From contig JAKPPP010000183.1 of the NCBI GenBank assembly GCA_029547265.1, forward strand, positions 1-63,519: DNA of 63,519 nucleotides, read 5' to 3'. Made by a program: the position numbers and the translations under genes. This document shows, piece after piece, positions 31,563 to 43,352 of this stretch (positions within the stretch are counted from its first letter, which is position 1; each line of letters opens with the position of its first letter). The DNA comes from Bacteroidota bacterium (GTDB lineage Bacteria > Bacteroidota > Bacteroidia > AKYH767-A > OLB10). The notes under the pieces are model-generated. The model made no database searches. It had not been told where the DNA came from and saw only the letters and a program-made list of their open reading frames with translations.

Positions 31563-32780
31563 TTAATCGACTTTAATGGTATGTCCCATTTTATCGCGCT
31601 TGGTTTGCAAATAAAAATGGTTGTGAACATTTGAATGAACCTCTAATGCAACTTGTTCAACAATTTCTAGTCCGTAGCCAATCAATCCTACACGTTTTGT
31701 CGGATTATTTGTCATTAGCTTCATCTTCGTTATTCCAAGATCACGGATTATCTGAGCTCCCACGCCATAGTCGCGTTCGTCCATCTTAAATCCTAGTTGA
31801 AGATTGGCTTCTACAGTATCTAAACCTTCTTCTTGAAGCTTGTATGCTTTCAATTTATTTAAAAGGCCAATTCCTCTTCCCTCTTGGTTCATATAGACAA
31901 TTACTCCTTTGCCTTCTTTTTCAATTATCTGCATTGCCTTGTGCAACTGCGGACCACAATCGCAACGACATGACCCGAAAATATCACCCGTAATACAAGA
32001 AGAGTGAACCCTAACCAATACAGGCTCTTCTTTCTCCCATGTTCCTTTTACCAATGCGAGATGCTCTTGTTGAGTATTGGTTTGTGTATATGCTACAAGT
32101 CTGAAATTCCCATACTCTGTTGGCATGTCCACTTCTACTTTACGATCAATCAATGATTCATGCTCCAAACGATATTTAATCAGTTGCTCAATAGACACTA
32201 TTTTCATTGAGAACTTCTTGGCAATCTCTAAAAGCTCAGGAAGACGAGCCATGCTGCCATCTTCATTCATTATTTCAACAATTGTTCCTGAAGGTTGAAA
32301 TCCGGCAATTCGAGCCATATCCATCGATGCTTCAGTATGTCCCGCACGACGAATAACGCCACCTGTCTTAGCTCTAAGAGGGAAAATATGTCCGGGGCGA
32401 CCTAAATCTTCAGGCTTTGTATCTTTATTGATTAATGCTAAAATTGTTTTCGATCGATCAGAAGCTGAAATACCTGTTGTGCAACCATGTCCTAATAAAT
32501 CTACCGATACGGTAAATGCTGTTTCATGAGACGCAGTATTATTGTTAACCATCATCGGAAGATTCAACTCTTGACATCTTTCCTCTGACAGAGAAACGCA
32601 AATTAATCCACGGCCATGAGTAGCCATAAAGTTGATTACTTCAGGAGTAGCGCATTCCGAAGCAACAAGAAAATCTCCTTCATTTTCACGGTCCTCATCA
32701 TCAACTACAATCACAATTTTACCATTACGAATGTCCTCTAATGCCTCTTCTATGGTATTTAAAACACTATTTGTATTCAT
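31563..32780 (-). CDS. ribBA: Bifunctional DHBP synthase / GTP cyclohydrolase II
   Basis: [55 protein letters not shown]. Confidence 0.97.
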
Positions 32781-32810
32781 GGGGAGATTTTTTTCTTTTT
32801 ATTGGTACTG

Positions 32811-32818
32811 CAAAGTTA
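32811..32818 (-). promoter_or_regulatory. Sigma-A -7 element for ribBA
   Basis: TAACTTTG on minus strand, 30 bp before ATG. Confidence 0.65.
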
Positions 32819-32974
32819 CTGAATCCTTTTGCGGCATCCTTGTTTTATTATGATTTTCGACAGTTCTCGAATCATTTTGTCGATTTTCTTACAATCGATT
32901 TTTATGGCGAGAAATATAATTTATAGAGGTAACATTCAGTAGTCGTGCAAAGTTTTTGTCATATTTTAATCGTT

Positions 32975-33003
32975 TTACAACTCACTGACTTACAGTTGTA
33001 AGT
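32975..33003. promoter_or_regulatory. Nested inverted repeats, possible operator
   Basis: TTACAACT-N11-AGTTGTAA (32975-33001) and ACTTACA-GT-TGTAAGT (32988-33003). Confidence 0.35.
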
Positions 33004-33018
33004 AAATATGAAAAAAGG

Positions 33019-33051
33019 GTAACCTTAGTAGATCATGCCCGTTTAACTTCG
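33019..33051 (+). promoter_or_regulatory. Candidate promoter for the hairpin array (ECF-like AAC-N16-CGT, overlapping a sigma-A-like TAACTTCG)
   Basis: GTAACC at 33019-33024, CGTTT at 33040-33044; TAACTTCG at 33044-33051 (one mismatch to TAnnTTTG). Confidence 0.4.
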
Positions 33052-33114
33052 ATATAAAACCTAGAGTGATTAAGGTTTTCGTTCTTAAAAGAGCATTTAA
33101 AAAAGCAAAAACAA

Positions 33115-33386
33115 TAGGGTTTTGTTTGGTTTAGGTTGATGTCAGGTATGGGCTGCCCCGTAAGGCAGCCCGGGCTGACTAAATCAAATATTCTCTATGA
33201 CGATATTGCCCCGTAAGGCATAACACATGGTTTTGGTGTTTTTAGGTTGATTGTCAGATAAGGAGTAACCCCGTAAGGTTACTCCGGACTGACTCCTCCA
33301 AATCCGGTGTGAGAAGAATGGTTAGCTTTTCTGGTTGATTGTCAGTTCGTAAGCAGCCCCGTAAGGCTGCAAGAACTGACTTTTTT
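33115..33386 (+). ncRNA. Putative structured non-coding RNA made of tandem covarying hairpin units
   Basis: Four CC-CCGTAA-GG apices (loops at 33158, 33211, 33271, 33359); three full units with GGTTGAT(T)GTCAG...CTGAC frame and different but perfectly paired inner stems; ends in TTTTTT; no ORF >=60 aa. Strand inferred. Confidence 0.7.
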
Positions 33387-33390
33387 CATT

Positions 33391-34419
33391 TTAAGCCGTT
33401 TGTGCCTTCTTCTTTAAGTTCAATATTGAAAATTCAGAATCTTCTTTCTTTATAGTATTTGATAAACATCCTAATCCGTCGATTGTCATTTCTACAACAT
33501 CCCCGGCTTGCAACCATTGAACAGGATAATTCGGATCATTTAGTTTACCGGTTCCGTTTAATTCGAGGAAACATCCGGTTCCGACTGTACCGCTACCGAT
33601 TACGTCTCCGGGAAAAATATCTACACCGTAAGCACAACGTTCAACGATTTCTGCGAATGTCCAATCCATATCTCCCATATTTCCTTCACTAACCTGAATT
33701 CCGTTAACGGTACAAGTCATTCGCAAGTTGTAATTATTCCCTTCATGACCGGGTTTAGCTGGAATAAGAAAAGAAGCTAATTCATCGGGAGTTACCATAA
33801 ATGGACCGATAACAGTAGAAAAATCCTTCCCTTTAGCAGGCCCGAGGTTCAACTTCATCTCCTCCATTTGAAGCAAACGAGCACTCATATCGTTCATAAT
33901 CATATATCCTGCAATATATGCATCGGCATCTTTAGCTTTAACATTTCTTCCACGCTTTCCGATTACGATAGCGCCCTCTAATTCGAAATCGAGTTGACGG
34001 AAATGATCGGGCATACAATAGATATCTCCGGGACCTTGAATAGCATTATGATTTGTAAAGTAGAATATAGGATACTCGTCAAATTCAGCAATCATTTCAA
34101 CTCCGCGGTTGCGGCGAGCTGCTGCCACATGTTGACGGAAAGCATATCCGTCGCGGCAAGAAGTAGGCTGAGGTACAGGGGCTAGCACTTCAATTTCGTT
34201 CCATGAAAAAGAAGCAGAAGTCACCTCCCCGGCTTTAATTTTAGCCTCTACAACTTTCGCTTGATTCATTGCAGCCTCCTCACCTTCAAGCAATTCGCGC
34301 ATAGAAAAAGGAACAGAAAGTCCTAAAGCTTTTCCTGCTTCTTGATAAGGATAAATTTTATCGTTTACATAAATCCCTACTGCGGGACCACCTTGGTATT
34401 TAAAGCTAACTAATTTCAT
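33391..34419 (-). CDS. Fumarylacetoacetate hydrolase family protein
   Basis: SCRDGYAFRQHV, LDFELE, GYMIMNDMSAR, GPAKGKDF, PGDVIGSGTVG; start set at ATG 34419; divergent from hmgA. Confidence 0.93.
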   Translation of the reverse strand: MKLVSFKYQGGPAVGIYVNDKIYPYQEAGKALGLSVPFSMRELLEGEEAAMNQAKVVEAKIKAGEVTSASFSWNEIEVLAPVPQPTSCRDGYAFRQHVAAARRNRGVEMIAEFDEYPIFYFTNHNAIQGPGDIYCMPDHFRQLDFELEGAIVIGKRGRNVKAKDADAYIAGYMIMNDMSARLLQMEEMKLNLGPAKGKDFSTVIGPFMVTPDELASFLIPAKPGHEGNNYNLRMTCTVNGIQVSEGNMGDMDWTFAEIVERCAYGVDIFPGDVIGSGTVGTGCFLELNGTGKLNDPNYPVQWLQAGDVVEMTIDGLGCLSNTIKKEDSEFSILNLKKKAQTA

Positions 34420-34438
34420 GATAATTCTAATTTGGTTA

Positions 34439-34463
34439 CAAAAGTAGCCATTGGTTAAATTTG
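34439..34463. promoter_or_regulatory. Back-to-back divergent -7 elements (fah and hmgA)
   Basis: TACTTTTG on minus (34439-34446) and TAAATTTG on plus (34456-34463), both TAnnTTTG. Confidence 0.55.
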
Positions 34464-34520
34464 CACCATCTAAATTGCAAAAGATATTTCCGATCTTGTG
34501 CACCCAAACCTCAAATTACG

Positions 34521-43278: not shown

Positions 43279-43352
43279 TGGAGAATATCGGAGTCGAACC
43301 GATGACCTCTTGCATGCCATGCAAACGCTCTAGCCAGCTGAGCTAATCCCCC
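43279..43352 (-). tRNA. tRNA-Ala(GGC), CCA not encoded
   Basis: GGGGGATTAGCTCAGCTGGCTAGAGCGTTTGCATGGCATGCAAGAGGTCATCGGTTCGACTCCGATATTCTCCA; anticodon GGC, GTTCGA T-loop, G3.U70 pair. Confidence 0.97.

Follow-up and report, generated by a model that had tools for sequence, protein, structure and literature searches.

A tandem array of hairpins, each capped by an invariant CCGUAA hexaloop, is present in contig JAKPPP010000183.1 of a Bacteroidota bacterium (assembly GCA_029547265.1; the whole 63,519 nt stretch is referred to below as the window), and represents a well-supported new modular noncoding RNA family, restricted to one uncultured family of Bacteroidia. Positions 33019-33386 of the plus strand are taken to be a free-standing gene whose product is a structured noncoding RNA some 335 nt long, and it is very probable that this is a real, plus-strand structured RNA. 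The parts of the gene are given below, with scores from R1, a covariance model built from 23 repeat units of equal geometry:

33019-33046, plus strand: predicted extracytoplasmic function (ECF) sigma-type promoter, with a -35 box GTAACCT (33019-33025), a 14 nt spacer and a -10 box CGTTTAA (33040-33046), the boxes being conserved across loci
33052-33386, plus strand: whole predicted RNA, about 335 nt, delimited by the promoter and the terminator
33056-33093, plus strand: 5' domain of conserved layout, consisting of a hairpin (AAAACC at 33056-33061, GGTTTT at 33074-33079) and a boxA-like element, CGTTCTTAAAAGAG, at 33080-33093
33116-33187, plus strand: module 1 (unit 1), R1 64.7 bits, E 2e-12; as read from the sequence, a U/G-rich leader at 33116-33140 (3' end GGTTGAT) and a two-helix hairpin at 33141-33179 with the CCGUAA hexaloop
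33207-33220, plus strand: mini-hairpin TGCC-CCGTAA-GGCA without a leader (unit 2), likewise read directly
33228-33301, plus strand: module 2 (unit 3), leader 33228-33252, hairpin 33253-33293, R1 66.4 bits, E 8.8e-13
33313-33388, plus strand: module 3 (unit 4), leader 33313-33340, hairpin 33341-33380, U tract 33381-33386, R1 54.2 bits

The array itself (33116-33388, plus strand) contains the motif CCCCGTAAGG four times and has three complete hairpin units. All four motifs lie on the plus strand within 33156-33366, where 0.03 would be expected in the window by chance, and none of 100 shuffles reached this number. There are no further copies in the rest of the 3.70 Mb assembly (428 contigs, 92.8% complete), the four at the locus being the genome total. 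The three full hairpins of the form GTCAG...CCCCGTAAGG...CTGAC are also confined to the array locus genome-wide, as are the three matches of R1 in this genome. The predicted fold of 33100-33400 is better than that of shuffled sequences on both strands (z -5.97 for plus, -5.84 for minus), and no open reading frame (ORF) of at least 40 amino acids occurs between 32927 and 33390. The initial annotation had described four hairpin units in direct orientation within an ORF-free gap; they lie exactly where it placed them, and both the shared orientation and the lack of ORFs are borne out. Its unit length of about 40 nt is correct for the hairpin, but the unit is longer and includes a conserved, U/G-rich leader of 25-30 nt.

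The consensus of this leader is UUUGGUUAG(C/U)UUUUAGGUUGAUU as RNA, or TTTTGGTTAG(C/T)TTTTAGGTTGATT as DNA, and the sequence GGTTGAT(T) is found directly 5' of units 1, 3 and 4. In the hairpin that follows, the outer helix (G)UCAG/CUGA(C) is separated by a purine-rich, asymmetric internal loop from an inner helix that varies and has 6-9 pairs, and in every unit the hairpin is capped by the CCGUAA hexaloop with a C-G closing pair. The second pair from the loop shows U-A or U-G variants, and for this reason a hexaloop is preferred over the alternative register, a GUAA tetraloop with a CC bulge. The same loop is also carried by leaderless hairpins and by terminator hairpins. The number of CCGTAAG copies per locus ranges from one to seven, commonly three or four, and unit number differs among genera. 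Leaderless mini-hairpins such as unit 2 are found in related genera as well, there 5' of a leader designated type 3. Module 3 doubles as an intrinsic terminator, its hairpin (-22 kcal/mol) being followed by T6 (33381-33386); in other arrays the terminator is either the last hairpin or an additional one, often with a CCGUAA loop. In the minimum-energy fold of module 1 the leader segment UUUGGUUUA is paired to the tail segment UAAAUCAAA, and in most folds the leaders pair with their own A-rich tails to give a third helix, designated P0, which is absent from R1. The mean leader-tail pairing energy was -10.4 kcal/mol for cognate pairs, -9.3 for non-cognate pairs and -8.7 for shuffled sequences.

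Selection on the paired structure is evident from comparison of the units. A MAFFT alignment of 64 units showed the loop, the loop-closing pair and the TC of the outer helix to be invariant, and RNAalifold, run on this plain alignment, recovered the inner helix with compensatory changes in seven of its eight pairs. When the 23 equal-geometry units were compared with a hand-written structure of 14 pairs, 92.5% of cells were paired, against 82.8% for shuffles (0/500 reached the observed value) and 21-47% for slid controls. Across 52 sources R1 recovered 136 units, 89 of them distinct; aligned to the model, and hence fitted to the structure in question, these gave 94.9% paired cells and changes on both sides in 13 of the 14 pairs, with 0/500 shuffles reaching this level and slid controls at 26-39%. 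The covariation of stems first noticed among the units of a single genome is therefore upheld across genomes, and the tests of structure and covariation agree on a structured, multi-unit noncoding RNA.

The direction of transcription can be read from wobble pairs and terminators. In the R1 alignment (1197 cells) G-U/U-G combinations outnumber A-C/C-A by 76 to 9, counts that would be swapped on the minus strand, and the MAFFT-only alignment gives 21 to 5. A hairpin of -9 kcal/mol or better with a T-run, at or after the last unit, was seen in 37 of 40 arrays when the plus strand was examined, and in 11 of 40 in the opposite direction. Because of the G-U excess and the plus-strand terminators, the plus strand, also favoured by the initial annotation, is the RNA strand.

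No known family accounts for the array. A search of the window against Rfam 15 at gathering thresholds returned nothing at this position, and an E-value search of 32781-33420 gave seven matches, all far below the gathering score (E 2-9). Twelve orthologous loci had no Rfam 15 match. The view that these hairpins lie outside described families has thus survived the Rfam check, and full-text literature searches with motif strings and descriptive terms found no description of them, in coverage that did not extend to supplementary files, which might list related RNAs. The sole Rfam match in the window is a transfer RNA gene at 43279-43352 on the minus strand.

A DNA search of 60 related genomes found the array in 28 of 36 members of the same family and in none of the 24 genomes that represented other families of the order. 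With R1, it was detected in 66 of 83 genomes of the family (50 of the 61 of high quality) and in 20 of 23 genera; one of the genomes counted (G067) is flagged as unpublished, and without it the figure is 65 of 82. Array-bearing genomes of the family carry a single cluster of one to seven tandem units on a single strand, with the exception of a weak second match in G031. Elsewhere in the order R1 matched one of 63 genomes (G041, of family f6), and there were no matches in a class-wide sample of 146 genomes from 62 families outside this one. A scan of species-representative genomes with the exact pattern gave 33 stretches, of which 29 are in metagenome-assembled genomes labelled Bacteroidia, Bacteroidota, Bacteroidetes or Flavobacteriaceae; the other four, from other taxa, did not match a profile hidden Markov model of the unit alignment and were taken as chance. 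The covariance-model search proposed at the outset therefore finds one locus per genome, and the dispersed, REP-like copies (repetitive extragenic palindromic elements) that had been named as an alternative outcome are absent.

Five apparent absences within the family were inspected. In G018 and G035 ribBA, the usual neighbour of the array (see below), lies at a contig edge, and in G063 and G017 a different gene directly adjoins it. The fifth genome, G012 (genus g2), has a diverged copy of the array 3' of ribBA on the same strand (L106:3040-3270, R1 18-20 bits), in which one unit has an altered loop and the terminator hairpin retains CCGUAA. The array of G041 consists of six near-identical 87 nt units (L099:1297-1794, minus strand), the last with a different loop and a U8 tract, and the near-identity of these units suggests recent amplification or homogenisation.

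Upstream of the array, the boxes GAACCTT-N14/15-CGTT[T/A]AA were found in 33 of 42 unique loci (ad hoc score of at least 7). Among these 33 the spacer is 14 nt in 21 and 15 nt in nine, and its sequence is unconserved. With a weight matrix derived from 18 further genomes, the window promoter came first genome-wide (22.7 bits), a rank that reflects conservation and does not show a regulon, the matrix having been built on orthologous loci. The window sequence at 33019-33046 has the AAC of the -35 box, the CGT of the -10 box and the fixed spacing of about 16 that mark ECF promoters, and it is probably of this type; transcription would then start near 33052. In Flavobacterium psychrophilum a CGT -10 box is described as a mark of ECF promoters, one of which has a putative small RNA (sRNA) under its control (PMC9723704). 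A scan of 32700-33500 with sigma-70 consensus promoters and terminators returned no sites, being blind to ECF-type boxes and to an interrupted terminator stem. The initial annotation already named an upstream promoter, but it missed the ECF type and the boxA-like 5' domain described next.

In relatives, the 5' domain has the same layout, with (C)GTTCTT(A/T)A placed directly after a small hairpin of variable sequence. The motif GTTC[TA][TAG] occurs within 125 nt 5' of unit 1 in 31 of 40 arrays, compared with 8 of 40 and 6 of 40 in two controls, and of 31 arrays, 20 have a hairpin that ends no more than 6 nt from the box, as do 4 of 31 controls. The boxA consensus is given as UGCUCUUUAACA for E. 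coli and AUGAUCUUUGAAA for B. subtilis, and a small hairpin followed by boxA is reported for the leaders of ribosomal RNA (rRNA) operons (rrn), with boxA also preceding suhB and CRISPR (clustered regularly interspaced short palindromic repeats) operons (PMC13753749). The 16S leaders of five of five family genomes examined, including this one, contain CGTTCTTTGAAG and related GTTCT boxes, aaaCGTTCTTTGAAG lying about 130 nt 5' of the 16S gene and GTTCTAAAAAAGATTG after each TAnnTTTG-type promoter. The array box CGTTCTTAAAAGAG resembles CGTTCTTTGAAGG of the 16S leader of the same genome and agrees with rrn-type boxA in sequence and placement. Because layout and consensus both match rrn boxA, the 5' domain is read as an antitermination signal of this kind, and on balance it may well function as boxA. 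The 16S leaders inspected (G000:C61:3850-4550, designated L098, and L094-L097) each have three GTTCT-type boxes, GTTCTAAAAAAGATTG after each of two TAnnTTTG-type promoters and CGTTCTTTGAAGGATTGG about 130 nt before 16S.

The array is flanked by two protein-coding genes:

31563-32780, minus strand: ribBA (Pfam DHBP_synthase and GTP_cyclohydro2), a divergent neighbour lying outside the RNA
33391-34503, minus strand: gene of the fumarylacetoacetate (FAA) hydrolase family, convergent and downstream

For the survey of neighbours, 55 of 81 computed flanking ORFs were run against Pfam, near-identical relatives being omitted. The divergent upstream gene was ribBA at 27 of 28 loci, and at the 28th the wrong ORF had been picked. 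The downstream gene was convergent at 27 of 27 loci, and its product is a group-1 glycosyltransferase at 16 of these, an FAA hydrolase at 10 and Lon at the remaining one. In G041 a convergent glycosyltransferase gene is retained downstream, and an ORF of 173 amino acids without a Pfam match, which the units directly follow, takes the place of ribBA. The linkage of the array to ribBA looks inherited; a functional tie between them is possible, and the strand evidence lends it no backing. No riboswitch for flavin mononucleotide (FMN) was detected in 32781-33018, in 12 orthologous loci or elsewhere in the genome, in searches for which the Bacteroides thetaiotaomicron control was also silent, and its absence may be usual for the phylum. 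A palindrome of the TTACA-N2-TGTAA type, TTACAGTTGTAA, is located at 32990-33001, about 18 nt 5' of the -35 box of the RNA gene. In 15 of 42 unique loci, TTACA-N2-TG[TC]AA occurs no more than 330 nt upstream of the array, and more TCTTACA half-sites lie closer to ribBA (region 32830-32990). This palindrome may be an operator common to the divergent ribBA and RNA promoters.

Sequences of the array are present in RNA libraries. Of 17 runs listed, 14 contain part of the stretch, and nine of these, from different studies, are recorded as RNA. Metatranscriptome contigs from four runs of four studies (bioreactor, biofilm, sludge and activated sludge) match 33119-33341, 33124-33332, 33135-33324 and 33236-33418 at 100% identity, and additional metatranscriptome contigs match units of relatives. 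The transcription anticipated by the initial annotation is supported by these contigs, which do not give the strand. These contigs stop inside conserved leaders, probably at points where assembly was broken by words common to relatives; their ends are not RNA ends, and the stretches they leave uncovered are uninformative.

The explanation that best covers the whole, and one that we put forward tentatively as short of probable, is that of a gene with an ECF promoter and a boxA, producing a multivalent decoy or scaffold RNA. Transcription would begin at the ECF-type promoter under conditions that activate the cognate ECF sigma factor. On the model of rRNA leaders, the small hairpin and boxA-like element in the first 40 nt of the RNA would load NusB/S10 and shield the untranslated transcript from Rho. 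The body of the RNA would consist of tandem modules, here three full ones and a mini-hairpin and in relatives one to seven, and would act as a multivalent platform whose 2-8 identical hexaloop/bulge sites bind, and thereby titrate or assemble, a putative factor that reads CCGUAA. The invariant loop, its recurrence on other hairpins, the covarying stems, the variable unit number and the leader-tail pairing are the reasons for proposing a platform read by its shape and a few fixed bases; leaders paired with their own tails would also be less available as seeds. Taken alone, the decoy/scaffold mechanism is a plausible proposal that we would not yet call likely. The fuller scenario, in which an ECF-induced RNA of CCGUAA modules, protected by boxA and Nus factors, captures an RNA-binding protein and reprogrammes expression under envelope or nutrient stress, as the first decoy or scaffold of the CsrB kind in a phylum not known to have CsrA, Hfq or ProQ, is more speculative and rather unlikely as it stands.

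Several observations weigh against this explanation. No partner was found: profile searches of the 93% complete genome returned no CsrA (PF02599, zero matches, with E. coli, B. subtilis and T. maritima as positive controls), no RRM_1 and no ANTAR domain, the last in a search without a working control genome, so that this negative carries little weight. The cognate sigma factor was also sought, and in the 428-contig assembly none of 152 promoter-like sites above 14 bits lies 5' of the 18 genes of the sigma-70 family; other high-scoring sites are mostly within long ORFs. Seemingly more constrained than protein binding would require, the leader is conserved along some 22 adjoining bases, and three leader types, each specific to a position, have been kept from genus to genus as the inner helices diverged; pairing with conserved target sequences would account for this pattern no less well. 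The P0 helix between leader and tail is weakly supported. The RNA evidence consists of contigs alone, giving no strand, ends or level, and DNA carry-over is possible. The alignment to R1 is biased towards the structure to which it was fitted, and the MAFFT-only results agree with it in direction.

The same leaders are an argument for reading the transcript as a multi-seed base-pairing regulator, or as a precursor cut into sibling sRNAs, in which A/C-rich stretches of messenger RNAs are bound by the leaders and possibly also by the loops, the hairpins are mere stabilising 3' structures, and several seeds per transcript raise dosage or broaden the range of targets. We regard this as doubtful, though deserving of attention. 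The sigma-E-dependent sRNAs of enterobacteria and tandem sibling sRNAs offer precedents. Some 22 contiguous leader bases are kept across genera as the stems drift, the three leader types hold their positions, and the leaders are poor in C (4%) and able to pair with A-rich start regions; a putative sRNA behind an ECF-type promoter in Flavobacterium, as reported in PMC9723704, is also in keeping with such a role. However, when the leaders were paired with 2291 start regions, called crudely, they had no clear advantage over their shuffled versions: duplexes of -16 kcal/mol or lower numbered 151, 130 and 87 for the three leaders, and 89-180, 48-84 and 46-105, respectively, for four shuffles of each. 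Leader 13-mers with at most one mismatch gave scattered genome matches only, among the matches listed, predicted folds tend to show the leaders bound to their own tails, and base pairing leaves the invariant loop and the conserved outer helix unexplained. An improbable alternative is that the array is a cis element of ribBA, either as a leader or attenuator on the minus strand or by promoter interference. The constancy of ribBA at 27 of 28 loci next to a variable other neighbour (10 FAA hydrolase, 16 glycosyltransferase, 1 Lon), its retention beside the diverged copy in genus g2, the lack of an FMN riboswitch in this genome and the 12 orthologous loci, and the TTACA-N2-TGTAA palindrome between the two genes would all suit such a role; yet the wobble pairs favour the plus strand (76 vs 9), the promoter, boxA and terminators are all on that strand, the array of G041 (family f6) is away from ribBA, that of g2 lies downstream of it, and by eye ribBA appears to have its own TAACTTTG box about 30 nt before its ATG.

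Two further readings are very improbable. One takes the array for guide RNAs of an RNA-guided protein of the Cas12f/TnpB kind, and it draws on the tandem layout, the unit spacing of 85-115 nt, the phylum and the ECF link, all of which fit the dCas12f-sigmaE guides described in PMC13472631, and on two Cas12f/TnpB-like ORFs in the genome. These ORFs retain a zinc-ribbon domain and sit on other contigs, one of them with an unrelated repeat array; known guides lie directly 3' of dcas12f and end in a guide of 14-16 nt, according to PMC13472631, whereas the neighbours here are ribBA and an FAA hydrolase or glycosyltransferase gene. Moreover, the variable part is base-paired and covarying, leaving no free guide, the last unit ends as a terminator, and leaders and tails have no extended match elsewhere in the genome among the matches listed. 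The other reading, equally remote, is of repeats acting as DNA (protein-binding inverted repeats, or elements like REP or miniature inverted-repeat transposable elements, MITE) or of the repeat RNA of a type III antitoxin. The tandem direct repeats with their internal dyad symmetry are in keeping with such elements, but there is one locus per genome, the units within a genome are not near-identical (G041 excepted), the arms covary and accept G-T but not A-C, which implies selection at the RNA level, and no co-oriented toxin gene lies 3' of the array, downstream genes being convergent.

Several specific identities were considered and rejected. For REP/MITE elements, the four motif copies and three R1 matches all lie at a single locus, and 66 genomes have a single cluster (with the weak extra match in G031). 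For a CRISPR array, the units share leaders and differ in stems, no unique spacers alternate with exact repeats, and ribBA and FAA hydrolase or glycosyltransferase genes, not cas genes, adjoin it. For a ToxI-like type III RNA, the downstream gene is convergent at 27 of 27 loci and encodes an FAA hydrolase, a glycosyltransferase or Lon. For a dCas12f-sigmaE guide array, there is no adjacent rpoE-dcas12f, the tails are A-rich and variable, 13-mers from all segments of the RNA, with one mismatch allowed, had scattered genome matches only, among the matches listed, and the last unit ends in a U tract. Pairing with rRNA was discarded, the best leader-rRNA duplexes being -19 to -21 kcal/mol and shuffles averaging -20 to -21. 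Contig C61, which carries the 16S gene and its leader, has no CCGTAAG in its first 9 kb, and a 15 nt identity to C61:4887-4901, apparently in a coding region, was taken as chance. Mimicry of the anti-Shine-Dalgarno sequence by the tails was likewise dismissed, CCUC-like words being found in only 13 of 89. Separately, one 1301 nt contig of the assembly (G000:C419) has a TnpB/Cas12f-like ORF at 271-1160 (PF01385, PF07282), followed by three direct repeats of 36-37 nt separated by spacers some 35 nt long; this small CRISPR-like array has no relation to the RNA gene.

To our knowledge, CsrA, Hfq and ProQ are all lacking from the phylum Bacteroidota, the regulatory RNA biology of which is poorly known and where the classical RNA chaperones are missing. 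We know of no description of a boxA ahead of a small, regulatory-type RNA behind an ECF-like promoter, and a literature search on boxA contexts returned rRNA, suhB and CRISPR only; if the fuller scenario holds, processive antitermination would serve a regulatory RNA rather than rRNA or CRISPR transcripts, and the boxA-like element raises the prospect that Nus-factor antitermination protects a small, repeat-rich RNA of this kind. An ECF-type promoter would link the RNA to a stress regulon. The strong covariation, the clear anatomy of the gene, its presence in metatranscriptomes of sludge, biofilm and bioreactor, and an invariant loop that implies a specific reader make the family a good point of entry, and the loop could serve as a handle for discovering an as yet undescribed RNA-binding protein or RNA-RNA contact in this freshwater and wastewater lineage, which is uncultured.

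Among known systems, the CsrB/RsmX/Y/Z decoys come to mind for their many copies of a short loop motif on one transcript, in numbers that vary by lineage, and for their organisation as stand-alone genes with intrinsic terminators. The CsrB-like logic proposed in the initial annotation holds as logic, but the loop motif differs: CsrB-type sites have a GGA loop, whereas each site here has an invariant CCGUAA, a 25 nt leader and a two-helix stem, there is no match by sequence or model, and no CsrA was found in the genome. The dual-hexaloop RNAs bound by ANTAR proteins, and the sponges EutX/Rli55, present hexaloop hairpins in tandem as recognition sites, have a conserved A1 and G4, and can act as sRNA decoys. 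The tandem hexaloop arrangement is shared, but the loop in all units here is C-C-G-U-A-A, not A1/G4, and does not have the features of an ANTAR substrate. MicA, RybB and MicL are sigma-E-dependent sRNAs of enterobacteria, and with these and Rfp11 the RNA shares a noncoding gene behind a promoter with AAC in the -35 and CGT in the -10 box, although there is no homology and those RNAs are single, short base-pairing ones without repeated modules. Rfp11 is the example from F. psychrophilum (PMC9723704). The dCas12f-sigmaE guide RNAs are of the same phylum and have tandem units of about 85-105 nt, a stem-loop scaffold and high expression; as described in PMC13472631, they are 85-105 nt long, sometimes tandem, located right after dcas12f, and have a free guide at the end. 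The present array differs in lying away from rpoE-dcas12f, in having no free 3' guide, and in a variable part that is helical and covarying. With the rrn-type boxA regions of rRNA leaders, suhB and CRISPR operons, as set out in PMC13753749, the RNA has in common a small hairpin followed by (C)GUUCUU(U/A)A... near the 5' end of a long, untranslated and repeat-rich transcript, and the array box is very similar to the boxA found in 16S leaders of the same family.

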